A stretch of DNA of 64,000 bases from Nitrosopumilaceae archaeon (GTDB lineage: Archaea; Thermoproteota; Nitrososphaeria; Nitrososphaerales; Nitrosopumilaceae). The notes beneath the pieces are model-generated. The model ran no database searches. It had not been told where the DNA came from and was given only the letters and a program-made list of their open reading frames with translations. Numbering within the stretch: the stretch's first letter is position 1; the number at the start of each line of letters is the position of its first letter. The translations under genes were made by a program, and so were the position numbers. The stretch is taken from assembly GCA_965203465.1 (NCBI GenBank), contig CBDBCR010000001.1:768001-832000 (forward strand), written 5' to 3'. Below, in pieces: positions 17,110 through 46,374 of the stretch.

Positions 17110-18705
17110 GTAACTGTTCACGTCGTTTAGGCCCGTTTACGCGTACGGCAGCAGCTCCTTCACGTAGTCCAGGCCCTGGTTCTTCCAGGTGGCGATGCAC
17201 GTGAAGATGTTGCCGTAGATCTCCATGCTCTCCTCCGCCCTGAGGCTGCCGCGGATCTTGCGGTGGATGACTATCTCGCGCAGGCCGCGCTCGGCCGCGT
17301 TGTTGGTCGGCTGTATGCGCGGGTCCAGCACGAACGCGAACAGGTCGTCGGCCGCGCCTTCCAGCTTGCCGAGGAACGGCCGCGAGACCGAGCTGCCCCA
17401 GTTGTCGTCTATGATGCGCCGCACGCAGCCCAGCAGCGCCGCGCGGACGCGGCCGCGCCTGGCCTTGCTCATGCGCTTTCCGGACGCGCCGCGCGCGGTC
17501 TCGAAGACGCCGCGCAGCCTCTCGAGTATGTCGCGCGCGGCCGCGCTGTCGGGGTGCGCCCGGAGCAGGTACCTGGCCTCGCGCAGGATGTGCGCCCAGC
17601 AGCGCTGGCGCCTCCACCCGTTGTACGACCTCCACCCGTCGCAGACGATCACTCCCCTGAATCCGGGCAGCACGTCGCGCAGCACGTCGCGCCCCCTGCT
17701 CGGGCGCACCACGAACAGCGAGTTGCCCGTCAGGGGGTCGAGGAAGATCCACACCCAGACGAGCTCGCCGTTGAGTTTGAACGACGTCTCGTCGATGTGC
17801 AGCACGCCGGCGCGCTGCATGGCCAGGATCATGGCCTCGACGAACGGCTTCATGTTGCGCCCCGTCCTGGCCAGCACGTTGCTTACCGTGCCTACGGAGA
17901 CCGCCAGGCCGTCGCGGCCCATCCTGCGGGCGTTCATCCTGTGCGTCAGGCGGTCGTCGAAGTTGCTCACGACGCGCCCGCACGCGTTGCGGCCCAGCTC
18001 GCCGGCGCTCGGCAGGCCGGCGTCGGGCTCCATGCCCTTTTGGCCGCACCGACAGCATTCGTAGACGTTTATCGTGTGGCGCGTGGTGACCGGCTCCGCG
18101 GGGGGAGGAGACTCCGTGACGTTGCGGGTCTTTTGCCCGGTGTTCTTTATGCTGTCGGACCCGCAGTTGGGGCACTCGCTCATCGTGTGCTCCTCGAACT
18201 CGGTGGGCTCGGGCTTGCTGGTCTTGCCCGGGTGTCCCTTTTGCGCGCCCTGCTTCCTGCCGGACTTGGGCCTGTCCCTGTTCTTTTTGGCGGCGATCAT
18301 TTTCTGGGTGTACGTCATCTTGGACGACGGAGTGTGCGCGTTGTCGTGGATCTTGTTGATCTTTTCCAGCTCCTTCACCCTGCGGGCGAGCCGCGCCGAC
18401 CTGTCGTCGGCCTTCAGCCTGGCCGCTCTTTGGTCTTCCAGCTCCTGCTTGGTCAACGCCAGCTCCGCCTCGGCGCGCAGCTTGTCGCGCTCGGCCCGGT
18501 CGGCCCTGTCCGTCTCGACGTTCAGCCGCATCTTGACCTGCTGCAGCTCGGTCCTTGCCCCCTTGAACTTGTGCTTCCACTCGGCGCACTTGCGGGTCGC
18601 TTCCCTGCAATCCAACGGCTGGCGTAAAACGTACTAGTATTTAGATCGCTGCTGTCAAAAAAATTCACCAAGGGGTGAAAATTCAGGCACGACGTGAACA
18701 GTTAC
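17110..18705 (-). mobile_element. IS66-family element, single ORF (ISBst12-group-like), 1596 bp
   Basis: Perfect 17-bp terminal inverted repeats GTAACTGTTCACGTCGT; 8-bp target-site duplication GTACGATT at 17102-17109 and 18706-18713. Confidence 0.95.
17137..18615 (-). CDS. IS66 family transposase
   Basis: Coiled coil, NAHTPSS, GAQKGHPG, CPNC Zn finger, LHIDET, VCDGW..QRCWAHILR, PTNNAAERGLR. Confidence 0.95.
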   Translation of the reverse strand: MDCREATRKCAEWKHKFKGARTELQQVKMRLNVETDRADRAERDKLRAEAELALTKQELEDQRAARLKADDRSARLARRVKELEKINKIHDNAHTPSSKMTYTQKMIAAKKNRDRPKSGRKQGAQKGHPGKTSKPEPTEFEEHTMSECPNCGSDSIKNTGQKTRNVTESPPPAEPVTTRHTINVYECCRCGQKGMEPDAGLPSAGELGRNACGRVVSNFDDRLTHRMNARRMGRDGLAVSVGTVSNVLARTGRNMKPFVEAMILAMQRAGVLHIDETSFKLNGELVWVWIFLDPLTGNSLFVVRPSRGRDVLRDVLPGFRGVIVCDGWRSYNGWRRQRCWAHILREARYLLRAHPDSAAARDILERLRGVFETARGASGKRMSKARRGRVRAALLGCVRRIIDDNWGSSVSRPFLGKLEGAADDLFAFVLDPRIQPTNNAAERGLREIVIHRKIRGSLRAEESMEIYGNIFTCIATWKNQGLDYVKELLPYA

Positions 18706-18897
18706 GTACGATTTTAGCTCGCGCAGGCGGCCGGACGATGCGTTTTCTGGGTCGGATCTAGGGGGCAGAATCATGTCCTCCAGCACATCCATGAACCCTT
18801 GCTGCGTCTTGACCTGTGGCAGACGCTCACCCTTCTCTGCCAACGGCCGAAGCCCGGATTCGGTGTGTAAAAGTGTTTATTGGTCGGCCGGCCCGAC

Positions 18898-19020
18898 GTA
18901 TCCGCCCGCCCCCTATGTCCTGCGCCTGAGACGGGCTGACGCCTGCCCACAGCGCGGCCGGGTAGGCGCTGGAGCCGGCCGTTGTCCCGCCCCGTCTTGG
19001 GGCTCTACCGCGGCGGCAGG
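18898..19020. mobile_element. Degenerate relic of the end of the IS66 element found at 42737
   Basis: GTATCCGCCCGCCCCCTATGTCCTGCGCCTGAGACGGGCTGACG aligns to GTATGCACTCACCCCCTCCGTCCGACGCCTGAGACGGACTGACG (42737 onward); similarity continues to GGAGCCGGCCGT...CGGCAGG. Confidence 0.7.
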
Positions 19021-19158
19021 TTGCGCGACGGCACCCGCGTGCCCGACGGCGCCTTCATCAGCGTGAAGATGCGCGCGCTGGACGCGTCGCCAGATCCACG
19101 GCGGTATTACTCACTGCTTGAATCGCTGGAGGACGTGATAACGGTGCGCATCATTTAG
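19016..19158 (+). pseudogene. C-terminal fragment of the 41227..41997 gene
   Basis: RLRDGTRVPDGAFISVKMRALDASPDPRRYYSLLESLEDVITVRII* matches the end of the 41227 ORF. Confidence 0.85.
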
Positions 19159-19523
19159 AGGCGGCCAGCACCCGTTTCCACTTCTCCGCGGCCGCCTTTT
19201 GGGCCAGTGCCCACGAGTACTCTTCAATCTCTTTGTTCTTGACGCGGCAGGCCGCGAGCTTTTCCTCGTCGGTCATGTACTCACAGGCGTGCTGCCAAGT
19301 GATCCTGAGGACCTCGTCCGAAGCCTCCGTTCTGAGCTCGTCCGGTATGGTCGGGCCGCTAAGCGGAATAGAGGCGAATATCAAGTGTGCCTTTCGCTCC
19401 GCGACTTTTTTCCAGGCCTCAAAGTATTCGGCGGATCTGGCTTTCCTGTCGCTCACCTCCCACGGGGTGTTGATGGCGCTCTCTACAGTGTTGGCAAACT
19501 CGGGGGGGCTCGGCCTTCTGCAT
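19151..19523 (-). pseudogene. Paralog of 41897..42361 with a +1 frameshift in a G7 run (could still be translated from the downstream GTG at 19456)
   Basis: G7 at 19502-19508 versus the 6-nt GGGTGG in copy 2; otherwise MQKAEPPEFANT...SDRKARSAEYFEAWKK... is conserved. Confidence 0.75.
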
Positions 19524-19592
19524 GGCTTACCCCTAGATTTGAGAGTATAAATCTCAAACGCTGTTCACTAGACACGGGCCTTTCCCGGCCGC

Positions 19593-20588
19593 CTACACGT
19601 CCACCTGGGACCTTTCGCCCAGCAGGAACCTGCGCGGCTTGCCGCCGCCGCGGATCTCCGAGCCCTGCGCTATTATGCTGCCCGATATGGTACCGCCGTC
19701 CTCCAAGGTGCAGCCGTCCATGATTATCGAATCGGATATGGAGCACCCAGATATGCGGCACCCGTCCCCCACCGAGACGTTGGGGCCAAGCGCCGACGAG
19801 CTTATCTGGCAGCCGTCGCCCACCAGAACGGGGCCCTCCAGCTTGCAGTCCTCCGAGACGCGCGAGCCCCCCACCCGGACGCCGGATCCGAGCACGAGCC
19901 TGTTGGCGTCGATGACGTCGTCGGGGGTGCCCGTATCCTTCCACCAGCCGTCGACGAAGCCGTGCTCCAGTTTGCCGTTTTCCAATATACCCTGCAGGGC
20001 GTCGGTTATCTCCAGCTCGCCGCGCCCCGACGGGCGCAGCTTTTCTATTATGCCGAACACCGACGGCGTCAAGAGGTACACGCCGATGACTGCCAGGTCC
20101 GACGACGAATCGGCCGGCTTTTCGGCTATCCTCTCGATTCCGTCCGGGCCCAAGAAAGCGATGCCGAACCGCGACGGGTCCTCCACCCGGCACAGCAGTA
20201 TCTGGGCGTCGGGCCCCCCCTCGAACTTTTCTACGTACGGGCGCAGCCCGGCGCGCAGTATGTTGTCGCCCAGGTACACGACGAACCTGTCCGTGCCGAC
20301 GAACCCGCGGCACAGGCCGACCGCGTGGGCTATGCCCCTCGGGGAATCCTGCTCGACGTACGTTATGCCGACGCCGAACTTGCTCCCGTCCCCGTAGTAT
20401 TCGCGCACCCTGCCGCTGTGGGTACCGCCTATTACCACGGCTATGTCGGTGATGCCCGCGTCCCGCAAATCTTCGAGGGCGTACTGCGACATGGGTTTGT
20501 TGGCGATGGGCAGCAGCTGCTTCGGTCCGGTGTGCGTCAGGGGCCGCAGGCGCGTGCCGTGGCCCGCGTGCAGTATTATGCCCTTCAC
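19593..20588 (-). CDS. rmlA: Glucose-1-phosphate thymidylyltransferase (long archaeal form with left-handed beta-helix tail)
   Basis: KGIILHAGHGTRLRPLTHTGPKQLLPIANKP, YLGDN, RGELEITD, WWKDTGT; GTG start overlaps the upstream TGA. Confidence 0.93.
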   Translation of the reverse strand: MKGIILHAGHGTRLRPLTHTGPKQLLPIANKPMSQYALEDLRDAGITDIAVVIGGTHSGRVREYYGDGSKFGVGITYVEQDSPRGIAHAVGLCRGFVGTDRFVVYLGDNILRAGLRPYVEKFEGGPDAQILLCRVEDPSRFGIAFLGPDGIERIAEKPADSSSDLAVIGVYLLTPSVFGIIEKLRPSGRGELEITDALQGILENGKLEHGFVDGWWKDTGTPDDVIDANRLVLGSGVRVGGSRVSEDCKLEGPVLVGDGCQISSSALGPNVSVGDGCRISGCSISDSIIMDGCTLEDGGTISGSIIAQGSEIRGGGKPRRFLLGERSQVDV

Positions 20589-31279: not shown

Positions 31280-33433
31280 ATGGAGGCTCTACAGATCAGG
31301 CTGCACGACTGCTACGGGATACACTGCATGTCCCGCAGGTTCGAGCTGTCCGACACCAGGCACGTGGCCATATACGCCCCCAACGGCACGATGAAGTCGT
31401 CGCTCGCAAGGACGTTCAAGGACGCCAGCGAGGGCAGGGATTCCGAGGAAGTGGTGTGCAACAGAACCTCCAGCCGCGTGATAGAGGACGGGGACGGGAA
31501 GGCGGTGCCGCCAGACGGCATTCTGGTGATCGATCCGCTAAAGGACTCCCAGGATATCCACGCCGCGTCGCTGGGCATACTGGCCAACGAAAAGCTGCGA
31601 AGCCGATACGGGGCGGCCGTCGCGGGCCTCGTGTCTGACAAGGAAACGGTGATCAAAAAACTGGCCGGGCCGTCCGGCCTTGCCGGAAAAACCGAAGACG
31701 CGGTATTGCGCGATTTCGGCAAAGGCGGGGGCTTTACGGAATTTTTCGCCGTCCTCGAGCAGTGCCTCGATGCGCCCCCGGATGCGGATCTGTCGGACGT
31801 CAGGTACGTCGACGTGTTCAACGAAAAGGTCGTGCGGGCCCTGGAACAAGAGCACGTGAAGGAACAGCTGACTGCCTATCTGCGCAAATACAACGAGCTG
31901 GTGTCCCAGTCCGCGTATCTGAGCGCGCAGTTCGATCACGGCAGCGCGGACACGGTCAACAAGAAACTCTCCTCGACGGGGTTTTTCAAAGCCGGGCATT
32001 CCGTAAGCCTCAGCTCGAAAGCCGGCGGCCGCGCCGAGATAAAAGACAGGAAGGCGTTCGAGCTGCTCGTAGCGGACGAAAAGAAAAAAATCAAGGCGGG
32101 CCTGGATTCCGACTGGGAAAAGATCGACAGGGACGTGTTCAGAAACTCCGACCTCCACGAGTTCCGCCGCATAGTCAAGGACAACGCCGGCCTGCTCGAG
32201 AGGCTGCTGGCCGATCCGGAAAAGCTGCGCAGGGATCTTTGGCTGAGCTACTTTGCGGCGATCGGGCCTCTGCACGACGTGGTTAGATCGTACAGATCGC
32301 GGCAAAGCGACATCGCAGAGATCGTAAAACAGGCCAAGGCCGAAAAGGCCCGGTGGGAGGAGGTGGTAAAAGAATTCAAGGGGAGGTTCTTCGTCCCGTT
32401 CGACGTAAAGGTCGCAGAGGTGCACCAGTCGGTGCTGGAAGGCAAGATGCCCACGCTGCAGTTTGACTTTGACGACGGCGTGCAGAAAACCGCGGTCACG
32501 CTGGACAAGCTGCAGAGGGCCCTGAGCGCAGGGGAACAAAGAGCGCTGTACATACTGAACGTGCTCTTCAAGATCAAGAAGCGGATCGCAGACGGAAAAG
32601 AGACCGTCGTCGTGCTGGACGACATCGTGGACTCGTTCGACTACGCGAACAAGTACGCGATAATCCAGTATCTGAAGGAAATCTCCACGGAACGGCTCTT
32701 TCACCTGGTGCTCCTTACGCACAACTTTGATTTCTTCAGGGCGGTCATGAACAGGCGCATAGTGGGGCGCAAAAACTGCTATTACGCAAGCAAAGACCTG
32801 GGCAACGTGTCCCTCGAAGAGGCGCCCAACATAAGATCCATGCTGAAAGGGATAATCGAGTGCAAAGCAGGAGATCCGGAAAGCGACGAAAAATTCGTGG
32901 CGTCCATCCCGTTTGCGCGCAACCTGGCAGAATACAAAGACGGATCCGGCGAATACGACACGCTGACGTCGCTGCTGCACTGGCGGCCCGAGACGCCAAA
33001 GATCTCGATCGGGGACCTGCAGGAAACAATCCGCGCCGTCATACCGAAAATTCGAACCGAGCGACAGGACACCTCTCGCGCCGCGTACGATGTCATCATG
33101 GAGACCGCAGACAGGTGCTCGGACAGGACGAAAAACTCGCTGTACGGCAAAGTCGCCCTCTCCGTGGCGATCAGGGTGCGAGCGGAGCGCTTCATGCGCA
33201 GCAAGCTGGGCCCGGATTCCCGCCGGGACAAGAACCCGGACACGCACGATCTGATCATGGACTGCAAAAGTCGGCTGCCAAAGCACCAGGCCGACACGCT
33301 CGACCTGGTGGGGATCATGACGCCCGGCATCATCCACCTGAACGCGTTCATGTACGAGCCGATCGTGGACATAGACGACACGCGGCTGCGGGAACTGTTC
33401 AAAGACGTGCGCAGTCTGGAAGATTCTGCGTGA
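31280..33433 (+). CDS. ABC/SMC-like AAA_13 ATPase (RloC/PrrC-like architecture)
   Basis: IYAPNGTMKSS (Walker A), coiled coil, LSAGEQRA (signature), VVLDDIVDSFD (Walker B/D-loop), LTHNFDF, C-terminal MTPGIIHLNAFMYEP. Confidence 0.82.
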   Translation: MEALQIRLHDCYGIHCMSRRFELSDTRHVAIYAPNGTMKSSLARTFKDASEGRDSEEVVCNRTSSRVIEDGDGKAVPPDGILVIDPLKDSQDIHAASLGILANEKLRSRYGAAVAGLVSDKETVIKKLAGPSGLAGKTEDAVLRDFGKGGGFTEFFAVLEQCLDAPPDADLSDVRYVDVFNEKVVRALEQEHVKEQLTAYLRKYNELVSQSAYLSAQFDHGSADTVNKKLSSTGFFKAGHSVSLSSKAGGRAEIKDRKAFELLVADEKKKIKAGLDSDWEKIDRDVFRNSDLHEFRRIVKDNAGLLERLLADPEKLRRDLWLSYFAAIGPLHDVVRSYRSRQSDIAEIVKQAKAEKARWEEVVKEFKGRFFVPFDVKVAEVHQSVLEGKMPTLQFDFDDGVQKTAVTLDKLQRALSAGEQRALYILNVLFKIKKRIADGKETVVVLDDIVDSFDYANKYAIIQYLKEISTERLFHLVLLTHNFDFFRAVMNRRIVGRKNCYYASKDLGNVSLEEAPNIRSMLKGIIECKAGDPESDEKFVASIPFARNLAEYKDGSGEYDTLTSLLHWRPETPKISIGDLQETIRAVIPKIRTERQDTSRAAYDVIMETADRCSDRTKNSLYGKVALSVAIRVRAERFMRSKLGPDSRRDKNPDTHDLIMDCKSRLPKHQADTLDLVGIMTPGIIHLNAFMYEPIVDIDDTRLRELFKDVRSLEDSA

Positions 33434-34883: not shown

Positions 34884-36947
34884 CTACCCGCCTTGCGAAA
34901 CCGCCCCGTCTTGCCCGGCGCCGCCCTCCCCTTCCGGGCCGCGCCCGATGCAGTGATCAAGAAACGCGGTGATCCGGCACAGTTTTTGCGGATCTTTTTC
35001 CAGCACTATTCTGCAGAACTCGATCGCGGTCGCGATTTTGGAATCTCCGCCGGCCTTTTCAGCCGTCTCGAACGCCGGCCCGTCCATTCTCTTCATCAGG
35101 TGCTCTAGGTTCTTTTCCACCAGCACGATGTCGGCGCCCATGACCGACTCGCAGTCTGAGGGGAACTCTGCGGTCTTTCTGTTTTCCAGCCATTTTCTGC
35201 GTTTTTTGTTGCCGTCGTCGCGATCGGCCAGTACCACGTACGGGATTTTGTACGCTTCCAGCAGGTCTATGTATTTTCCGAAATTGCCGGCGCCGTTTAT
35301 GTACAGGATGAGGACGTTCCTGCGCGCCAGGTTGTATTTCTGATCCTCGCCCGCTTTGTATTCGGCCACTCCGGCCAGCAGGCTCTGATCGGAGGGCCCC
35401 TCCACCAGAATCACGCGTTTGGCGAAGAATATTGCCGGGTCGATCAAGTGCCGCAGCCGGCTCCGGTCTTTGTCGAACCGCTCGAAAGCGTCGCCTTCCA
35501 GAGACCTGACGGTGCTAGATGGGCCCTCGTTCCTGACGTACAGCACTTTGGACGAGTTTTCGAACGCCATAAAGCCCACGATCGCGGGCGAGTGCGTCGT
35601 GACGAGGATCTGGTTCCCCTCGTTGCCGCATATTTCCCCCAGGATCGCCCGCGTCAGGCCCGGGTGCATGTTGATGGACGGCTCGTCCAGCAGTATCGCA
35701 GAGTCGCGGGATCCGAGCACGAGCGCGAGCAGGTATATCGATTCTCGCAAGCCGGCCCCCGCGTCGGCTGCCCGGAACTGCTCGCCCGACCCGTCGGTTA
35801 TTACGGCCACGGGGGCCGCAAAAGTGCGCCTCAGATGCGGCCTGCCGGCGAGGTCATCTTCGTGCTCGGGCCGCTCTAGGATCACGTCCATCTTCAGTCT
35901 TTCGGGCCCGAACACGCTCTCAAACGCCCCCCGGATGGACTCGAAGCGCTCGCGGTCTGCCGGGACGGGCGAGGTCTTTAGCCCCAAAAGAAAGGAAGAC
36001 AGGTTGGATCCGTCGGCTGCGAGCGCCTCGGCCGGCACCGACCGTTTGAAGCGGGCCACCCGGACTAGCGCCTTGTTGTAAGCGCCGGCTACATCCGATC
36101 CCAATACTTCTTCCTGCCCGGGCAGGATCTTTAGCGATTCGATCCTGTCTTGTATGAGCGATCCGTCTATGTCCCTGCTGTCCGGGGAATGCACCGTGCC
36201 TCTGGCAAGAATCTCCCCCACAAGCCCCGTGAACCGGACTGCGCCGCTCCCGCCATCCCTTATGCCCACGTACGACTGGAGGCCTGCCAGCGTCCTCTTT
36301 CCGTGCTCGGGAATTTTGCGGTGATCTTCCTTGAGATCGGGCATTTCAAGCAGATTTTCTCGAAAAAACTCCGCCGTCGCGCTTTTCGCGCTTGCCTGAT
36401 CCGACAGTTCGGTTAGCAGGTTGCGCAGGGGCATTGTTCGGTTAACTTTTGCCGCCTCTTGTTCCGAAACGGCATGATCCGATATGAGCAGTTTGTCGGT
36501 TATGTCGCCGGACGCCACGAGCCCCATCTTCGAAAACTCGATTTCCACGGCGGTCTGGATTCCGTACTTTGCAGTTTTCTTCCAAGAAAGCCCGACGGCG
36601 ATCTCGTCCAAGAGGCCCGCGAGCAGGTCCCGGTTTTCGTACTCGTGGAACCTCATGCCCTGGGCGTCCGGCAGTAAAAAGCTGAAAAAATCTACGATCT
36701 TTTCCGCTTCGCCCCTTGACAGTCTCACGTGCAGTCCCAAGTGTGGATCGAGCACGCCCCTTGCGATTTGGGCGTCTTTGAGAGCCGGTGGCCTCGACAG
36801 GGCGTCCGCGAGCAGCCTGATCAGCCTGAAAAGGTTAGACTTGCCTGAGTTGTTGGGGCCGACTATTACCGCTCTGTCCGATACGTCCGCCGACACCTGA
36901 TCCCTGTACGAGTACAGCCCGCGGCATTGCAGTTTCGTGATGCGCAC
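34884..36947 (-). CDS. OLD-family ATP-dependent endonuclease (ABC ATPase plus TOPRIM)
   Basis: IVGPNNSGKSN, GAGLRE, LLDEPSINMHP, VTTHSP, ILVEGPSD, LADRD. Confidence 0.9.
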   Translation of the reverse strand: MRITKLQCRGLYSYRDQVSADVSDRAVIVGPNNSGKSNLFRLIRLLADALSRPPALKDAQIARGVLDPHLGLHVRLSRGEAEKIVDFFSFLLPDAQGMRFHEYENRDLLAGLLDEIAVGLSWKKTAKYGIQTAVEIEFSKMGLVASGDITDKLLISDHAVSEQEAAKVNRTMPLRNLLTELSDQASAKSATAEFFRENLLEMPDLKEDHRKIPEHGKRTLAGLQSYVGIRDGGSGAVRFTGLVGEILARGTVHSPDSRDIDGSLIQDRIESLKILPGQEEVLGSDVAGAYNKALVRVARFKRSVPAEALAADGSNLSSFLLGLKTSPVPADRERFESIRGAFESVFGPERLKMDVILERPEHEDDLAGRPHLRRTFAAPVAVITDGSGEQFRAADAGAGLRESIYLLALVLGSRDSAILLDEPSINMHPGLTRAILGEICGNEGNQILVTTHSPAIVGFMAFENSSKVLYVRNEGPSSTVRSLEGDAFERFDKDRSRLRHLIDPAIFFAKRVILVEGPSDQSLLAGVAEYKAGEDQKYNLARRNVLILYINGAGNFGKYIDLLEAYKIPYVVLADRDDGNKKRRKWLENRKTAEFPSDCESVMGADIVLVEKNLEHLMKRMDGPAFETAEKAGGDSKIATAIEFCRIVLEKDPQKLCRITAFLDHCIGRGPEGEGGAGQDGAVSQGG

Positions 36948-37450: not shown

Positions 37451-39583
37451 ATGGACATGAAAGAGGCATCCGAAACAGTCGGCCGGATGCTGGACGAATA
37501 CGTGTTTGAGGCAAAAGAGATAGAATCGTACCTGCGCTCAAGAGGCATCGTGCGGTACAAATCGGACATGGTAAGAATCATGCTGGCCGCGGCCGAGCGG
37601 CGGGCCCAGTTTATCGACCTAGTCTCGCGCAACCTTTTGGCATGCGCCTCGAGGACGGACGAATTCTTCGAGCTGGTCGCAGTCCTGCCCGAGTGGCGCG
37701 GGTGTGAACTCGAGCCGCTGCGCCTGCTTTATGGCCGCGATCCGCAGACTGCTTTGTGGCTGATCCGGAGGCTGGAAGCCACGGACCAAGACACGTCGAT
37801 CCCGCTGTCCTGGCTGTACACGGGAGCGGGCGAAAAAGAGCCCGGCATGCTGCTCGAAATGATCGGCAAGAGGCTGTCGCCGGCGCAAAAGACCGCTTGG
37901 ATGACGGCAGCCGACATCCTGTACGCAGGCCAGAGGCTTCCGCCCGAGGCCGAAGACTTCGTCATCCATCTTTCAAAGTCCCGCACGACGGCGGTCCAGA
38001 AATGCGCGATATCGTTCATGCTCGGAAGGGCGCAAGAGTCAAGACGAATACGGGATCGGCTCTGCCGCATCGCAAAGAACGGCAGCGACGAGGCCCGGGC
38101 GGCGCTGGCCAACGTCCACCCCCTCAAGAGGCCGGACGACGAATTTTTGCTCAAAATACTCGGGCTGTGCTCCAAGACGAAAAACGCGAGCGTGCGGGAG
38201 AGCATAGCGCTGTCCCTAGTTTCGTGCGCGCCCGACCATCCGCTCGAATGCGTAAAGATCCTCAGGCAGTGGCGCCAAGATCCGTGGTTCCGCCACAGAG
38301 TCGGCCGCCTCTTGGAGGAAGTCGGGAAAGGCGATCTGGGCAAGATACGCAGGTTCATGGAGTCGTGGATCCGCGACGCGAGGGGCTCGAAAACGGACGC
38401 CGGCACGCTGCCAGACGTGCTCTCGTGCGTGTATCGGAAGGACGAGATGCAACTCATGGAGTTGCTGGAGGAGGCAGGCTGCGAGGACGAAGCGACTCAG
38501 ATTTTGGTAGTCGACGTTCTGTGTGAGTTCCTCAGCGGCGGGTACAAAAAGGATCGCCGCTCCGTCGAATTCTGCAGGCGCGCCGAGATGGTTATCTTGG
38601 AGATAGCAAGACGGCGCGGGACGAACGTGTGGCCCGACCCGGAACTGAATCCGTTCATGCGGGTGCAGAACCTGATCAGGCAAGCAAGGTTCCCGATAAA
38701 AACGAGCATCGCAGACGCCCGCAACAACCTGAAGCGGTTCGAGAATCTGGGTCGGATCATGCGGCCGGGCACGCTAGAGAAAATGATCCGCGAAGTCCAC
38801 ACGCTGGCGGTGTGGCTGTCGAACGCCGAGCCGGATCCGGAGGGCGGCGCCGGGGATCGGGGCAGGCCGGGGGCCAGGCGCCAAAAGATCTCGCGCGCGT
38901 GGGTGTCCGACATAGACGCGTCGCTGCGGATGTTCGGGGACGGCCAGGGAATGTCCAGGATACGGCGCGGTTTGGTGTCCAGGACGGAGTTTTTTGACGC
39001 CCTGTCAGAGTTGACCGTGGCCGCTAGGCTGAAAAAAAAGTTTCCAACGACCCTGCAGCCCCGGGTGGGGAACAACGCGCTCGACGTGGAATCGACCGTG
39101 GGCGGATCGCGCGTGCTCTTTGAGGTCTTTAGGCCAAAGGGGGACATCAGGCTGCGGTACGTAAGAGGTGCGCACACGCTGGACAACGCGATACTGCCCA
39201 AGGTGGTAAAAAAAATAGACGGGCAGATAAAAAGCGCGCTGGGCGATGGGGTTCCCGTGGTGTTGGTTATAGACAGCACCGACGCGCGCGAAATAGTCGA
39301 TGCCGACATAGACGACGCCCTGTTCGGCACCGAGTATTTCGCAATGCCGTTCGGCGAGGGCGGCGCGGCGGGCCAGCCGCGCCCCGCCAGGAAAAAAGAC
39401 TCCGTGTACGACCGGACGGCCGGCGCCGGGGCGATAAGCGCGGTGCTGCTGGTGGAGATGGGCTGCGGGCGCGGCTCGAAGATAGAGATCGGCGGAAAGC
39501 TGTTCCGCGCGCCAAACCCGGCAGTCCCGCTGGGCGACGGGGCGGCCGGGGCCATAGAGGGGGCGCTTTTTGAGGCCGCGTAG
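37451..39583 (+). CDS. HEAT/ARM-repeat protein with a C-terminal PD-(D/E)xK-like nuclease domain
   Basis: Helical repeats, then FFDALSELTVAARL..LDVES..VLFEVFRP..QIK..VVLVIDS. Confidence 0.7.
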   Translation: MDMKEASETVGRMLDEYVFEAKEIESYLRSRGIVRYKSDMVRIMLAAAERRAQFIDLVSRNLLACASRTDEFFELVAVLPEWRGCELEPLRLLYGRDPQTALWLIRRLEATDQDTSIPLSWLYTGAGEKEPGMLLEMIGKRLSPAQKTAWMTAADILYAGQRLPPEAEDFVIHLSKSRTTAVQKCAISFMLGRAQESRRIRDRLCRIAKNGSDEARAALANVHPLKRPDDEFLLKILGLCSKTKNASVRESIALSLVSCAPDHPLECVKILRQWRQDPWFRHRVGRLLEEVGKGDLGKIRRFMESWIRDARGSKTDAGTLPDVLSCVYRKDEMQLMELLEEAGCEDEATQILVVDVLCEFLSGGYKKDRRSVEFCRRAEMVILEIARRRGTNVWPDPELNPFMRVQNLIRQARFPIKTSIADARNNLKRFENLGRIMRPGTLEKMIREVHTLAVWLSNAEPDPEGGAGDRGRPGARRQKISRAWVSDIDASLRMFGDGQGMSRIRRGLVSRTEFFDALSELTVAARLKKKFPTTLQPRVGNNALDVESTVGGSRVLFEVFRPKGDIRLRYVRGAHTLDNAILPKVVKKIDGQIKSALGDGVPVVLVIDSTDAREIVDADIDDALFGTEYFAMPFGEGGAAGQPRPARKKDSVYDRTAGAGAISAVLLVEMGCGRGSKIEIGGKLFRAPNPAVPLGDGAAGAIEGALFEAA

Positions 39584-40900: not shown

Positions 40901-41226
40901 GCCGCGGCGATCGGCCGGCTCGTCCGGCAGATGCAGCGACGCCCCGCCGCGCTCGGCCTCGCCGACGCCCGCAGGACGTCCTTTCTGACGGCCGCCGGCT
41001 CGGGCTGCGCGCAGAACGGAGCCCGGCGCGGTCGTCTTTTGGTTCATGCGGCCGTTTTGCCCCGCCGCCGGATTTGCGATCGGAAATCGCCGATCCGTCG
41101 GCGCGGCTTGGTTAGCCGGCAGTCGGAAACTGCTCTTGTACAATCCCGTAATCCAAAATACCGTAGATTAGATGTACGGTAAAATAACCGGTTGGCTTTT
41201 AACCCCCGGCCTGCCCGGCCCTGAAC

Positions 41227-41997
41227 ATGTCGGCAATATGCCCGGGCCACGTGCTGGATCGTAGCGTGCGGGATCGGGCGCGCCGCGAGTTCGCCCGCCT
41301 GATCCAATGGGGGATTCTCCACGCGGCTGACACCGTAGCTGTCATGGCCGAGACGCTGGAAACGAACCCCTACGCGGTCTTGGGCTGGGGGAGCCCGGAA
41401 TCTAAAGCGTACGCTCGGGCAGCAGGCGCCAAGGACTGGAGCCTCGCAGACAAGATATACCTCGACTGGCTCAAAATGCACGATCTGCTCGCGTACCGCT
41501 ACACGCTGTACATGGAGAGTCTGGCACGCGAGTTCACCGAGGCCCTGGCCCACAACGCATCCAGGGCCGGAACGCTATACCGCTGGATGAGCTTGGAAGA
41601 GTTGCCAAGCTACCTGGACGGCACGTTCAAAAGCAGGACGGAGGCGGGCGGCGGGAGCCGCGGATACAAGGCGTTCAGTTTGTGGATCAACGCATACGCC
41701 GGCAAGCGTGCGGCGTCGGTCACGGTGCCCGTCAACTACAAGATCCGTAGCGCTCTCCGGCCCGCAGCATATACGACCGTGCCTTGGCCGGTTCAGTCCG
41801 CGGACGAAAGAATCGACAGCCGCAAGCACCTCCTCCACGCGGGCGAGACCGAGTGCAGGCTGCGCGACGGCACCCGCGTGCCAGACGGCGCCTTTATCAG
41901 CGTGCAGAGGCGCGCGCTGGACGCGTCGCCCGATCCCCCGCAGTATTACTCGATGCTTGAGTCTCTGGAGGACGTGATACCTGTGCGCTTCGTTTAG
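41227..41997 (+). CDS. Putative ADP-ribosyltransferase-fold protein (R-S-E type)
   Basis: TLYRWMS...YKAFSL...GETECRL order of motifs; TTTTAA upstream; C-terminus conserved in a second copy. Confidence 0.55.
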   Translation: MSAICPGHVLDRSVRDRARREFARLIQWGILHAADTVAVMAETLETNPYAVLGWGSPESKAYARAAGAKDWSLADKIYLDWLKMHDLLAYRYTLYMESLAREFTEALAHNASRAGTLYRWMSLEELPSYLDGTFKSRTEAGGGSRGYKAFSLWINAYAGKRAASVTVPVNYKIRSALRPAAYTTVPWPVQSADERIDSRKHLLHAGETECRLRDGTRVPDGAFISVQRRALDASPDPPQYYSMLESLEDVIPVRFV

Positions 41998-42459
41998 GGG
42001 CGGCCAGCACCCGTTTCCACTCTTCTGCGGCCGCCTTTTGGGCAAGCGCCCACGAGTACTCGTCGATCTCTTTGCTCTTGACGCGGCAGGCCGCGATCTT
42101 TTCCTCGTCGGTCATGTACCTGCAGGCGTGCCGCCAAGTGATCCTGAGGACTGCATCCGAAGCCTCCGTTTTGAGCTCGTCCGGTATGGTCGGGCCGCTA
42201 AGCGGAACGGAGGCGAATATCAAGCGGGCCCTTCGCTCCGCGACCTTTTTCCAGGCCTCAAAGTATTCGGCGGATCTGGCTTTCCTGTCGCTTTCCTCCC
42301 ACGGGGTGTTGATGATGCTCTCCATCGTGTTGGCAAACTCGGGTGGCTCGGCCTTCTGCATGGCCCACCCTAGAATGGCGGGTATAAATCTCAAACGCTG
42401 TTCACACAGGCACGGCCCCGGCCCCGGCCGCCTACACGTCCACCTGGGACCTTTCGCCC
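41855..42459 (+). repeat. About 600-bp dispersed direct repeat, copy 2
   Basis: Matches 19016-19620, including CCGGCCGCCTACACGTCCACCTGGGACCTTTCGCCC (rmlA 3' end). Confidence 0.92.
41897..42361 (-). CDS. Small helical protein convergent with the ART-like gene
   Basis: MQKAEPPEFANT...; TTTATAC box upstream; the stop present in copy 1 (TGA) is CGA here, extending the ORF by about 31 aa. Confidence 0.75.
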   Translation of the reverse strand: MQKAEPPEFANTMESIINTPWEESDRKARSAEYFEAWKKVAERRARLIFASVPLSGPTIPDELKTEASDAVLRITWRHACRYMTDEEKIAACRVKSKEIDEYSWALAQKAAAEEWKRVLAAPKRSAQVSRPPETQASSNTAGDRATRPARASAR

Positions 42460-42736
42460 GGCACCGGGCACCCTGTCGCTTGCATCACATCTCTGGCGAT
42501 CTAGGGGCGGGGGATGTTTCGGCATCCGCGTTTCGGCATCCGGGCGGGGCCGCGCCGACAAACAGATCGCGCCGGCCGGCGGCGGGCCCGTGCTGCCGGG
42601 CCGGCAGAAACGCGGGCGCGCGGAAGAGGCGCAGTTGCGCGCAAATTGATCGTCGGCCGAGCTTGGCTTCAGGCGCGATTCCCGAACAAAGACTATATAT
42701 ACGGGCAGGACTAGATGCCGCGCGGGCGGCGGCGCC

Positions 42737-44555
42737 GTATGCACTCACCCCCTCCGTCCGACGCCTGAGACGGACTGACGCTGCCCGTAGCGCGTCCGGC
42801 GGCCCGTCAGGCGCGGTCAGGCAACAGCCGCCGCCGGAGCCGGCCGTCGCCCCGCCTCGGCCCCGGGCGGCCTCGGCAGGCCGGAGGCGGGCGAATCGAA
42901 TACCGACCAGTCGCGCGGCGCCGGCGGCCCGGGGTTGAACATGTCCCATCCGGGGTCGCGCAGCATCTCGACTACCGCCCTACACGGAAATACGTCGTTC
43001 ATGCCGCACGTCATGACGAACGTCAGCAGCCTGGAGAATACCTCGCGCCCCTCCGGCGTCGTGATCTGGTGGCGCACGTTGCGGTGCCTGACCGGGCCGT
43101 CCCTTATGGCGAGCTCGGCGGCGTTGTTGTGCGGCGGCATGCCCGGGTACGACAGGAACGTGAACATGTGCGGCACCGCCTTGGCCAAGTGCTTTTTCAG
43201 CCTGCCTTCCGGGTACGCCGAGATCATAGAGCGCACCTCGCGCGTCAGCTCGGTCACGGTGAACGGCGCGGCCGTCTTCATTTTCTTGATCTTGTGGTAA
43301 AAGCCCGAGGCCTGCTCGTGCCTCGCGCGATCGCCCGCGTCGCCGTCCACGGCCGGCGCCTCTACGTGGCCGAGCAGGTGCCTCCAGCACCTCTGCACGG
43401 CGGCGAACACGGCAGGGTACGACGGGTTTCCGTCGGCGACGATCGCCAGGTGCTGGAGCCAGCCGAAATATTCCCGCAGGAACGGGATCCCCTTGTGGGG
43501 CGTGGCGACGACGAACGCCGCGTGCTTGCATATGAACACCCACACGGTGCCCACCTTGCCGACTATCCCTATCTTGATGCCGGTCTCGTCGCCCTGCACG
43601 AATTTGCACCTCAGGAACGCCCGTTTGATGAGGTCCAGCTGCCTGTCCAGCGCGCAAGAGACCGCTTTGCGCGCCGAGGCTATGGCCGACTCCGACACCT
43701 TGAACCCGAAGAACGCTTCGAGAAGGCGCGAAATGTCCGCGTCGGTGCACCGCATCCCGTACAGCTCCGTTACCAGGCCCAGCAGCACCGGCCCCATCGA
43801 CGTGCCCTCCAGGAACGGGGACGGGGCGACGATCTTCTTATTGCAGTCCGGGCACCGCCCCGTCTCCAGGACGGCGATGAACGTGACCACCTTTCTGCAC
43901 TTGTCGAAATCCGAAACCGTCTTGTGTATGCATTCCCTGCTTTCGAGCCGCGCCCCGCACCCGCAGCGCGAGACCGTGTACTTTCTGCACAGCACCGGCA
44001 CGTTGGCGTGTGAGACGCCGGGGTGCACCGCCGGCGGGCCCCTCTTGCGGCCCTTGCCGCCCGGCCGCACCGGCCTGTCCGAGCCGGACCCGTCGCTCCC
44101 CCGCGCCCCGTGCTTTTTGCGGTACTTGTTGCGCCTGTGGTTGAACTGCGACTTTGTCGACGACGGGGCGTTGGGGCCCTCGTACAGGGCCAGCCTGGCC
44201 TTGTACTTTTCCTTCTCGGCCCTCTCCGAGGCCACCTGCTCTTTCAATACCACGATCTGGTTGTCCTGGTCGAAGATCATGATGTGGGCCGCGACCAGCT
44301 CCCCGCGCAGCAGTACAGCTTCCGACGCCATGGGTGCGGCCCGAAAGACCCCGGATCTAAAGATGTCGATCAATTTTTGTTGACTTTTTGTTCATTCTGC
44401 GTTTACGGCCGGGGGGCAGACAAGCCCCGGCCGGGGGGCCGGACGGGCGCGCGCCGCGGCTGCGGGCGCCCGACCGTGGGTTCACCCGCCCCTGCAGTGC
44501 GTCAGCCTAGGGCGTTTCGTGCCTACGGGCCGGGGGGGGGGGGGTGAGTGCATAC
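42737..44555 (-). mobile_element. IS66-family element, single ORF, 1819 bp
   Basis: Terminal inverted repeats GTATGCACTCACCCCC; 8-bp TSD GCGGCGCC at 42729-42736 and 44556-44563. Confidence 0.93.
42817..44373 (-). CDS. IS66 family transposase
   Basis: NAPSS, CPDC, VQGDET, VADG..QRCWRHL, PHNNAAELAIR. Confidence 0.92.
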   Translation of the reverse strand: MIDIFRSGVFRAAPMASEAVLLRGELVAAHIMIFDQDNQIVVLKEQVASERAEKEKYKARLALYEGPNAPSSTKSQFNHRRNKYRKKHGARGSDGSGSDRPVRPGGKGRKRGPPAVHPGVSHANVPVLCRKYTVSRCGCGARLESRECIHKTVSDFDKCRKVVTFIAVLETGRCPDCNKKIVAPSPFLEGTSMGPVLLGLVTELYGMRCTDADISRLLEAFFGFKVSESAIASARKAVSCALDRQLDLIKRAFLRCKFVQGDETGIKIGIVGKVGTVWVFICKHAAFVVATPHKGIPFLREYFGWLQHLAIVADGNPSYPAVFAAVQRCWRHLLGHVEAPAVDGDAGDRARHEQASGFYHKIKKMKTAAPFTVTELTREVRSMISAYPEGRLKKHLAKAVPHMFTFLSYPGMPPHNNAAELAIRDGPVRHRNVRHQITTPEGREVFSRLLTFVMTCGMNDVFPCRAVVEMLRDPGWDMFNPGPPAPRDWSVFDSPASGLPRPPGAEAGRRPAPAAAVA

Positions 44556-44602
44556 GCGGCGCCAGCGCCAACGTTCATAACGACGGTTCCGCGCTTTCGC
44601 GC

Positions 44603-45109
44603 GTGGAATCCAGGAGGGAAAGGCTGAGGATCGGCCTGGCGCACAAGCAGCAAGTCATCTTTTTGGTCATGCTCGCGGTGGGCGGCGGCCTCTTGACGGC
44701 GAGCCTTCTGTCCGGCCCCTACGTGGCCGAGGGCATAGCCTTTATGTTGGTGGGGCTGGCAGGGTTGCTCATGTCGTGGACCACGTTCGACATAGGCGCC
44801 GGGATCAAGGAGGTAGTCCGCGAGGTGGGCAGGGAGAACCGCGAAGCTGTCCGCGAGGTGGGCAGGGAGAACCGCGAAGCTGTCCGCGAGGTGGGCAGGG
44901 AGAGCCGGGAGGCGCTGGACAGAACGCTGGACAGAATTCTGGAGGCGCAAAGAGAGTCCCAGAAAGAGACGCGGGAGCTGATAGCAGAGTCCCAGAAAGA
45001 GACGCGGGAGCTGATAGGCAAGATGTCTGAATCACAAGACCGGATATCAAAGTCCCAAGACAGCATCGCGAGGCTGCTGGAGCGCGTGGTAAAGAACTCC
45101 GGGGCCTGA
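44603..45109 (+). CDS. 2-TM plus coiled-coil repeat protein, copy 1
   Basis: Two hydrophobic helices, SWTTFDIGAGIKE, (VREVGRENREA) about 3 times and (ESQKETRELIA) twice as 33-bp repeats. Confidence 0.75.
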   Translation: MESRRERLRIGLAHKQQVIFLVMLAVGGGLLTASLLSGPYVAEGIAFMLVGLAGLLMSWTTFDIGAGIKEVVREVGRENREAVREVGRENREAVREVGRESREALDRTLDRILEAQRESQKETRELIAESQKETRELIGKMSESQDRISKSQDSIARLLERVVKNSGA

Positions 45110-45169
45110 CGGCCGGATCGCGCCGGCAGCAGCATCGACGCCGTTCGCGGCACGCCCGCAACGCGCTGC

Positions 45170-45385
45170 ATGAGCGTGGCAAAAAGTGCCGTCGGACGCC
45201 TGATCTACGGCATCTGCGAAACCGGAGGCCCGAAAGGACGCCCCATCGTGATCAGGCGCCTGATCGGGAAGCGCCGCGTGACCGAGGGGGCGTTCGGCAG
45301 GATCGCGACCTGCGCGCTGACCTGGCGCAAGCGGGGCCCGGACGCCTACGGCGAGTTCTACCGGCGCCCCCGCCAACGTTCATAA
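45170..45385 (+). pseudogene. C-terminal fragment of an IS66 transposase
   Basis: RPIVIRRLIG..FGRIATCALTWRKRGPDAYGEF aligns with REIVIHRKIRG..YGNIFTCIATWKNQGLDYVKEL of the 17137 transposase. Confidence 0.65.
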
Positions 45386-45407
45386 CGACGGATCCGCGCT
45401 TTCCGGC

Positions 45408-45863
45408 GTGGAAAACAAAAAAGACTGGGTAAGGATCGGCCTGGTACAAAAGCAGCAGGTTATCTTTGCGGCCATGCTCGTGGTTGGCGGCGGCCTCTTG
45501 ACGGCGAGCCTGCTGACCGAGCGCTTTCTGGCGGCCGAGGGCATAGCGTTTATTTTGGTGGGGCTGGCGGGGCTGCTCATGTCGTGGACCACGTTCGACA
45601 TAGGCGCCGGAATAAAGGAAACGGTCCGCGAGGTTGGCCGGCAGAACAGGGAGGCAATCCGCGAGGCGAGCAGGGACAACATGGCGGCGCTGGACAGAAT
45701 GGCGGAGGCCCAAAAAGAGGCCCAAAAGGAGTCCCAAAAAGAGACGCGCGAGATGATAGCAGAGTCCCAAAAAGAGACGCGCGAGCTGGTGGGCAGGATA
45801 GCAGAGTCACAAAACGCCATCGCGAAACTGCTGGAGCGCGTGGTAAAGAACTCGGGGGCCTGA
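45408..45863 (+). CDS. 2-TM plus coiled-coil repeat protein, copy 2
   Basis: Paralog of 44603 with a different repeat count; same upstream motif and LERVVKNSGA end. Confidence 0.78.
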   Translation: MENKKDWVRIGLVQKQQVIFAAMLVVGGGLLTASLLTERFLAAEGIAFILVGLAGLLMSWTTFDIGAGIKETVREVGRQNREAIREASRDNMAALDRMAEAQKEAQKESQKETREMIAESQKETRELVGRIAESQNAIAKLLERVVKNSGA

Positions 45864-46001
45864 CTACCAGATCGCCCGGGCCGCGCCGGAGACGCGGCGA
45901 AAGCCCCCTGCAAATCTACCCGGGCGGCAGGCAGAGCCGCGCCGTTCCGGCGAGCGGGCTGGCTCGCGCCCGCGCCAACGTCCATAGCGACGGTTCCGCG
46001 C

Positions 46002-46374
46002 GTGGAATCTAGGAGGGAAAGGCTAAGGATCGGCCTGGCACACAAGTAGCAGGTCATCTTCGTGGCCATGCTGTCGGGGGGCGGCGGCTTCTTGCTGGCA
46101 AGCACGCTGTCCGGCCTACGTGGCCGAGAGCATGGCGTTTATTCTGGCGGGGTTGTTCATGTCGTGGACCACGTTCGACATAGGCGCCGGAATAAAGAAA
46201 ACAGTCCGCGAGGTGGGCCGGGACAACCGGGAGGCGCTGGGCAGAATCGCAGAGTCGCAAAAAGAGACGCGGGATCTGATGGACAAGATGTCAGAATCCC
46301 AAGACAGGATATCAGAATCCCAAGACGGCATCGCGAGGCTGCTGGAGCGCGCGCTAAAGAGCCCGGGGGCCTGA
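46002..46374 (+). pseudogene. 2-TM plus coiled-coil repeat protein, copy 3 (inactivated)
   Basis: CAG>TAG at 46047-46049 and a small deletion frameshift near 46115 relative to copy 1. Confidence 0.8.

Follow-up and report, generated by a model that had tools for sequence, protein, structure and literature searches.

The stretch of archaeal DNA analysed here (the window, 64,000 nt, G000:C1:768001-832000) comes from a sponge-associated, ammonia-oxidising archaeon with a genome of 2.26 Mb and 65% GC, labelled G000, and carries an enzyme gene that converges on the gene of a small helical protein. On balance, we favour the reading that the two encode a predicted cytoplasmic toxin of the ADP-ribosyltransferase (ART) kind and a protein that restrains it as an antidote, the toxin being likely derived from virus cargo. 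The link of the enzyme family to viral head modules is new and was absent from the initial annotation of this DNA, which had been made from the sequence.

Enzyme sequence and predicted fold

The enzyme gene (41227..41997, + strand) encodes 256 aa, with a helical N-terminal part (residues ~1-113) and an ART core (~107-256). Its translation contains LYR (R119), AFS (149-151) and ETE (207-209) in the order given by the initial annotation. R119 (motif I; 41581..41583, +) lies in a predicted strand at residues 116-121, A149-F150-S151 (41671..41679, +) occupies the S-T-S position with the first Ser replaced, and E207-T208-E209 (41845..41853, +) forms the ExE motif. Among 35 homologues of 15-79% identity, R119, E125, S/T151, Y182 and E209 were invariant, and E207 and K200 were kept in 34. 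At position 149, where STS has its first Ser, 18 of the 35 have Ala and 5 have Ser; the full STS was found in one homologue, the register being that of the sequence alignment. Motif II of the family therefore reads [A/S/P/G]-x-[S/T]. The R-S-E motif order proposed earlier thus stood for the arginine, the last S/T and the ExE motif, but not for the first Ser of STS, which is Ala in the window enzyme. Variant forms of motif II are present in other families filed as RSE in the consulted part of PMC12522546 (Table 1). A TATA-like box (TTTTAA, 41197..41202, +) was located 25-30 nt upstream of the enzyme ATG, a position common to all four enzyme paralogues compared, and judging from these letters the enzyme promoter is likely leaderless.

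The enzyme model, built from a 34-row alignment, had a pLDDT of 94.6 and a pTM of 0.89. A VIA structural search, independent of Foldseek, covered 48,161 chains, and its 11 highest-ranked matches all belonged to the ART superfamily, the class of these and other structural matches being assigned from their titles. The best match was the NAD lobe of Tpt1 (Z 9.2, rmsd 3.3, 112 aligned residues, model residues 107-256, 12% identity). It was the only match with Z above 8, and the tool cautions that lower values may reflect a common arrangement. The first eight matches were to Tpt1/KptA, DarT2, DarT1 and Scabin, with DarT1/DarT2 at Z 5.7-5.8; all of these enzymes act on nucleic acids. Foldseek returned ART folds in 41 of the 45 rows shown, with weak E-values (best 0.08), and the N-terminal helical domain of ~110 aa had no clear fold match. 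The ART fold postulated in the initial annotation is thus predicted, with a split beta-sheet NAD-binding core in the model. Such a fold is compatible with other chemistry as well: Tne5 is an ART-fold NADase in the portion of PMC13285283 consulted.

No significant family was found for either the enzyme or the partner in Pfam, NCBIfam, PHROG, PADLOC or PDB-sequence searches; searches with 35 homologues and with a set of 13 were likewise without a significant family. An atlas search with the enzyme gave only leads below 0.9 (ADPrib_exo_Tox, ModB).

The convergent partner and its copies

The partner is encoded on the minus strand (41897..42361), starting at 42361, and overlaps the enzyme ORF tail-to-tail, as the initial annotation had it. 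Its model was all helical (pLDDT 87). The conserved core spans ~123 aa, and at the 787k, 924k, 245k and C3 loci the partner has about this length and the two stop codons overlap by ~8 bp. The 41-kb copy has lost its own stop and reads through to 41897, giving 154 aa and an overlap of 101 bp with the enzyme. This form occurs in 5 of the 36 database homologues of the partner, and the junction showed no differences in contigs of runs X4 and X7, from two other studies. A TATA box (TTTATA, 42383..42388, -) lies 22-27 nt upstream of the partner ATG, and one was present upstream of all eight partner copies compared, so that the partner appears to be driven by its own promoter. ATG-proximal TATA boxes (~25 nt) at both genes in the copies compared suggest two leaderless transcripts. 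Within 29 aligned rows, with identity down to 16%, W37, K38 and E87 of the partner were invariant. Neither Foldseek (E <=0.001) nor the atlas search gave a match for it, the best VIA score was Z 5.2, and no macro, NADAR or SecB match was detected by profile and fold searches. Known reversing enzymes, namely ARH, macro and NADAR hydrolases, have sizes and folds unlike those of a 123-aa helical protein, which makes binding by the partner more likely than reversal. Two tandem ADP-ribosylglycohydrolase genes were observed beside an IS-like ORF at G000:C3:821017-822913, a family found in 7 of the 301 family genomes. An ADP-ribosylhydrolase was considered as a general antidote and rejected, because none of the seven other carrier genomes encodes one.

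G000 contains six enzyme loci (four intact, one interrupted by a stop at codon 9, and a remnant at 19 kb in the window), all facing a convergent partner. Partner matches in this genome numbered ten. Beyond those that face an enzyme, two adjoin the 369k locus, one at 528k is degenerate and one is an intact orphan. This orphan is located beyond the window, at G000:C1:887477-887860, with nearly no enzyme sequence left. It is preceded, at G000:C1:886530-887334, by a split gene that is nucleotide-sugar epimerase/reductase-like by eye. The initial annotation had asked whether the genes co-occur elsewhere, and the linkage extends to another genus: in G088, 4/4 enzyme loci of the clade faced a partner homologue (local E 7e-8 to 4e-3), as detected with a partner profile free of G088 rows. 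All ten enzyme loci of the clade in the two genomes were therefore linked to a partner. Of the outcomes that the initial annotation named as refuting (absence of an ART fold, unconserved motif residues, unlinked genes), none was obtained, the conserved residues being R and ExE. A wider profile that included G088 rows found nine partner matches in G088, some of them in tandem, and one in G105 with no enzyme adjoining.

An open partner frame was present at all seven intact enzymes of G000 and G088. Three of the ten clade loci had a broken enzyme, and an intact partner was kept at two of these three. Partner matches without a convergent enzyme numbered four in G000, five in G088 and one in G105. 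A toxin-antidote pair would be expected to leave just this imbalance, with partners surviving their enzymes and not the reverse. The persistence of orphan antidotes claimed initially is upheld to the extent that partners outlast enzymes and no intact enzyme stands alone, but the 19-kb copy offered as the orphan is frameshifted. The same qualification applies to the toxin/neutraliser reading as first worded, which gains from the survival of partners and is weakened by the frameshift and by the atypical motif II.

Both genes are under purifying selection. Values of dN/dS were 0.40-0.57 for four enzyme paralogues and 0.21-0.57 for five partner copies, with all pairwise values below 0.6; values near 0.5, together with several broken copies, are also compatible with relaxed selection. 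The identity matrices of nine enzyme-partner pairs were correlated (rho 0.86), these pairs being kin and not independent.

The recurrence of the unit within the window was confirmed at 19016-19625, with 89% DNA identity over 611 bp; in tblastn the enzyme remnant (E 5e-18) and the partner (E 7e-74) matched far beyond chance. The enzyme is cut immediately after the ExE codons, as noted initially, so that the 3′ remnant (19016..19158, +) comprises residues 211-256 only and has no catalytic motifs. The partner copy (19151..19523, -) had been called nearly intact. However, its reading frame shifts by +1 within a run of seven G (19502-19508), ~7 codons past the ATG at 19523, leaving a 101-aa frame open from a GTG at 19456. 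The G7 run was the same in a contig of run X1 (0 differences), X1 possibly being the source sample itself. The frameshift marks the 19-kb copy as a decayed unit and not as a clean orphan. An IS66 transposase gene (17137..18615, -, PF03050 E 2.6e-40) lies upstream of the truncated copy and is a possible cause of the enzyme deletion. Another (42817..44373, -, PF03050 E 2e-11) lies beside the intact copy, where it adjoins a non-coding repeat at 42723-43000 with several copies of 75-96% elsewhere in the genome. Part of this repeat recurs at ~18885-18960, just ahead of the truncated enzyme. Alignments of the flanks by eye revealed no common terminal repeat and no target duplication.

Several further genes were recorded in the window. 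An OLD/GajA-like ATPase-TOPRIM gene (34884-36947, -) lies near the intact copy. An AAA_13 protein gene (31280-33433, +), a 710-aa orphan with a nuclease-like C-terminus by eye (37451-39583, +) and a weak match to a pPIWI-associated nuclease (4278-6515, +) were also found. Together these four suggest a defence-rich stretch, and the OLD/GajA-like nuclease gene gives a weak hint of a defence context for the intact copy. The other module copies in G000 are located among housekeeping genes. At 44519-46374 (+) lie three tandem paralogous ORFs characterised by a hydrophobic hairpin and by segments of the QKETRE type that recur. The third seems to be cut short, and Pfam gave no match for the single ORF that was scanned.

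Distribution and viral relatives

A single-protein search of 41 genomes found no carrier besides G000. The enzyme profile matched 8 of the 301 family genomes, namely G000, all five of genus g13 and two of five in g2, and none of the four other genomes in the genus of G000 itself. At the level of the order only 3/401 genomes gave a match. The partner profile matched 2/301 family genomes, and within the GTDB sample the pair was confined to two genomes. All or part of the locus was present in 17 of the 18 listed runs, from seven studies. These were labelled as sponge metagenome (four runs of one study and one small share), marine metagenome (four runs) or by coded organisms, and no RNA run was among the listed holders. 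Pattern scans of JGI metagenomes and GTDB contigs gave no confirmed locus. Proteins 88-100% identical to distant enzymes came from records titled Cenarchaeum sp. (L055, L056).

No convergent partner accompanied the distant enzymes, which were those of g13, of G105 and of two loci in G088. Instead, each distant locus read had a small co-directional ORF downstream, often duplicated and unrelated to the convergent partner. Distant ART arrays, each followed by one or more such ORFs, were observed at L088, L009, L010, L020, L028 and L034, and L088 (G016:C1:1368000-1380000) holds three enzymes and four of the small ORFs. The ORFs belong to several unrelated or barely related families and are HTH-like by eye; Pfam HTH_34 matched one of them at E 7.5e-4. 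A single winged-helix family for all of them was suspected but is not claimed, the profile comparisons being weak (best E 3.7e-4, probability 36%). The co-directional ORFs are likely alternative antidotes. The four enzymes for which a convergent partner was seen all lay on one side of a branch with 96/93 support in a tree of 37 rows, and the convergent helical protein is likely a replacement partner in one clade.

The exhaustive enzyme search gave 43 matches, among them P0065 (E 6e-5, with P0001 alone as query), P0066 (E 7e-5) and P0059 (E 1e-8). P0059 is a protein of 848 aa with two ART-like domains by eye and repeated WVTIRGN motifs, which we take to resemble a polyvalent virion protein; no contig was found for it. 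Relatives of P0065 at 89-91% identity were present on six IMG/VR contigs, three full-length and three matching the N-terminal 205-215 residues only, and the gene context was taken from three of the six. In L048 a terminase gene (E 9e-22) and a gene of portal size come before the ART gene, and a minor-capsid gene comes after it; gene order alone gave the names portal, protease and major capsid in these head modules. By position, the ART genes of L048 and L049 lie just downstream of the presumed portal gene, whereas the window copy is not so placed. In the sister virus L051 precisely the ART domain and the 63 residues after it are missing, and the flanks are fused. Set side by side, L048:9129-11815 and L051:3015-4589 present the ART and the 63-aa segment as an optional insert in the head module. 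This insert marks a polymorphic cargo slot in what are likely Nitrososphaerales viruses. The 63-residue segment was also found 3′ of the ART in P0059 (E 7e-10) and 3′ of an ART fragment in G408 (E 6e-16). The latter genome, from another family of the order, carries the fragment and a virus-type small partner near a contig end (L085:15229-15824).

Viral scans with P0066 and P0059 gave no match, and these two are called putatively viral only for their likeness to P0065. The viral capsid-like protein was matched in 2/401 class genomes, both of the same order (39% and 31%). These tailed viruses likely infect such archaea, the basis for the host being the 39% capsid-like match in a same-order genome; a P0065 cluster member labelled Ca. 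Brocadiales bacterium, on an 8.7-kb contig, argues against an archaeal host. A separate viral clade was not rejected by the AU test on an unrooted tree (p 0.41), and repeated independent capture from viruses was accordingly set aside as unsupported. The enzyme likely descends from an optional cargo of tailed-virus head modules, a direction of transfer that we infer.

Proposed action, alternatives and known systems

The unit is likely a toxin-antidote pair in which a predicted NAD+-using ADP-ribosyltransferase, from a family not described before, would be inhibited by direct binding of its partner. The use of NAD+, the toxicity, the binding and the target are what we infer for the enzyme. A nucleic acid is a tentative first choice of target, a protein is a possible but more doubtful one, and plain NAD+ hydrolysis as the reaction appears unlikely. 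Because each gene has its own predicted promoter, the antidote could be produced independently of the enzyme. If the antidote disappeared or fell behind its enzyme, as could happen once a virus has turned off host expression, free enzyme would bring the cell to arrest. In this way the module would serve for addiction or abortive infection. The surplus antidotes would protect against paralogues of the enzyme, or against its relatives brought in by viruses or by strains living alongside. An antiviral role of the module is put forward as a possibility that we do not favour outright. We regard as rather unlikely, taken as a whole, the wider scenario in which sponge-symbiotic Nitrosopumilaceae domesticated the virion-packaged ART of their own tailed viruses into multi-copy modules, one lineage swapped the antidote, and orphans were stockpiled against injected or rival enzymes.

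Other readings account for parts of these data. The enzyme might be non-toxic and the partner its substrate or regulator, the ART modifying the partner or a host protein as a signal. Linkage and co-divergence would suit any interacting pair, and the atypical motif II and separate promoters fit as well. We consider this improbable, as it leaves unexplained why partner copies outnumber and outlast enzymes, and why the family shows a patchy spread (8/301) and clade-specific partner swaps.

It is similarly improbable that the enzyme is an outward effector directed at sponge cells or neighbouring microbes, in which case the partner would confer self-immunity and the orphans would represent immunity that was acquired. 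No trafficking domain was found in profile searches, and a hydrophobic segment was absent from the nine enzymes scanned (maximum 19-residue hydropathy <=1.2). Four carrier genomes had no match to the viral terminase query and no sheath family, and the lack of a detected export route speaks for addiction or abortive infection more than for an attack on other cells. The hydrolase, absent from the seven other carriers, adds little to this explanation beyond G000, where the two hydrolase genes would suit it. Sponge metagenomes among the holders, the orphan arrays, the packaged-cargo position of the viral relatives and the precedent of Bxa (PMC11699363, consulted in part) are all in keeping with outward use.

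Control by antisense overlap, with convergent transcripts silencing each other and the partner protein incidental, would make sense of the convergent layout and of the stop overlaps (~8 bp at several loci, 101 bp at the window locus). It is very improbable given that the partner is under protein-level purifying selection, that its W, K and E positions are kept at 16-19% identity, and that the intact orphan at C1:887k has nearly no enzyme sequence to overlap. Equally remote is a decaying viral relic, multiplied by nearby IS and now functionless. IS66 beside both window copies, the 3/10 broken clade loci and a dN/dS of ~0.5 would be expected of such a relic, but its catalytic positions would hardly be invariant across 15-79% identity, nor its promoters conserved and every pairwise dN/dS below 0.6. 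A Tpt1/KptA-like RNA-end repair enzyme is the least probable of all: the top fold match is to Tpt1 (Z 9.2) and PF01885 was not found in the 4/4 carrier genomes tested, but the enzyme itself has no PF01885 match at E <=1, keeps an invariant ExE where TRPT1 has substitutions in the motif (PMC12522546, part consulted), and is multi-copy, patchy, pseudogene-prone and tied to a dedicated partner, unlike a housekeeping gene.

The toxin-antidote pair that we favour was compared with known systems. With the R-S-E ARTs (R-STS-ExE; PMC12522546, in part) the family shares the predicted split-sheet core, the strand-1 Arg and an ExE on a later strand; it differs in motif II, in the ~110-aa N-terminal helical domain and in having no Pfam, NCBIfam or PDB sequence match. 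Like MuF toxins, as covered in the sections of PMC5576092 consulted, the viral relatives follow a portal-like gene and have an optional C-terminal domain with a small cognate segment, and their gene position fits that of head-packaged ARTs (PMC9503650, section 3.3.1, the part used). Unlike MuF and virion ARTs, the cellular enzymes stand by themselves with no provirus detected around them, and their partner is a different, convergent one; a MuF profile matched neither the enzyme nor the viral relative. The word 'archaea' is absent from the main text of the Jamet paper.

DarTG1/DarTG2 and CmdTAC likewise combine a stand-alone ART with an antidote, which here is predicted. The DarTG antitoxin is a macro or NADAR protein, whereas the partner here is an all-helical protein of 123 aa in a convergent layout with no PADLOC match; PF01661 was not found in any of the four carrier genomes tested. 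CmdT is of the HYE type (bioRxiv 2024.02.24.581662, as far as consulted). Tpt1/KptA gave the top structural score for the core, but the family has only 12% identity to it, and has an ExE, several copies and a dedicated partner. By the features tested, the unit is not DarTG, CmdTAC, a MuF toxin or Tpt1.

In Bacteroides prophages, the Bxa-Bsi/BAH system also joins a phage-linked ART to a small binding neutraliser, the immunity protein Bsi, in a host-associated carrier (PMC11699363, excerpted), and neutralisation in our unit is proposed by analogy. The window enzyme has no N-terminal delivery domain and no adjoining hydrolase, and was likened to Bxa by description. Type II toxin-antitoxin systems likewise consist of two small linked genes, as at the clade loci of G000 and G088, but usually form a single operon, whereas the genes here are convergent with a TATA box each. 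In its working, the unit may by analogy resemble a type II ART toxin-antitoxin or Bxa-Bsi.

Searches of the open-access literature brought up no account of this family or of an ART toxin-antidote pair in ammonia-oxidising archaea. The part of PMC8651126 consulted mentions an ART in two haloviruses only. In the consulted text of PMC7848895, sponge symbionts had no overall toxin-antitoxin enrichment by COG and Pfam labels, and the string 'ADP-ribos' was not matched there. If our reading is right, the conflict system would be invisible to such annotation-based comparisons of sponge symbionts. Both protein families would be new, and together they would form an archaeal ART toxin system that is small and cheap to test. 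The enzyme may moreover be an ART that modifies nucleic acids, standing between folds of the Tpt1/DarT type and the chemistry of R-S-E enzymes. The module would also exemplify how an enzyme carried as virus head cargo can become chromosomal and have its partner replaced. Should the domestication scenario prove true as well, these archaea would possess a polymorphic conflict system based on an ART, and its viral source could be traced.
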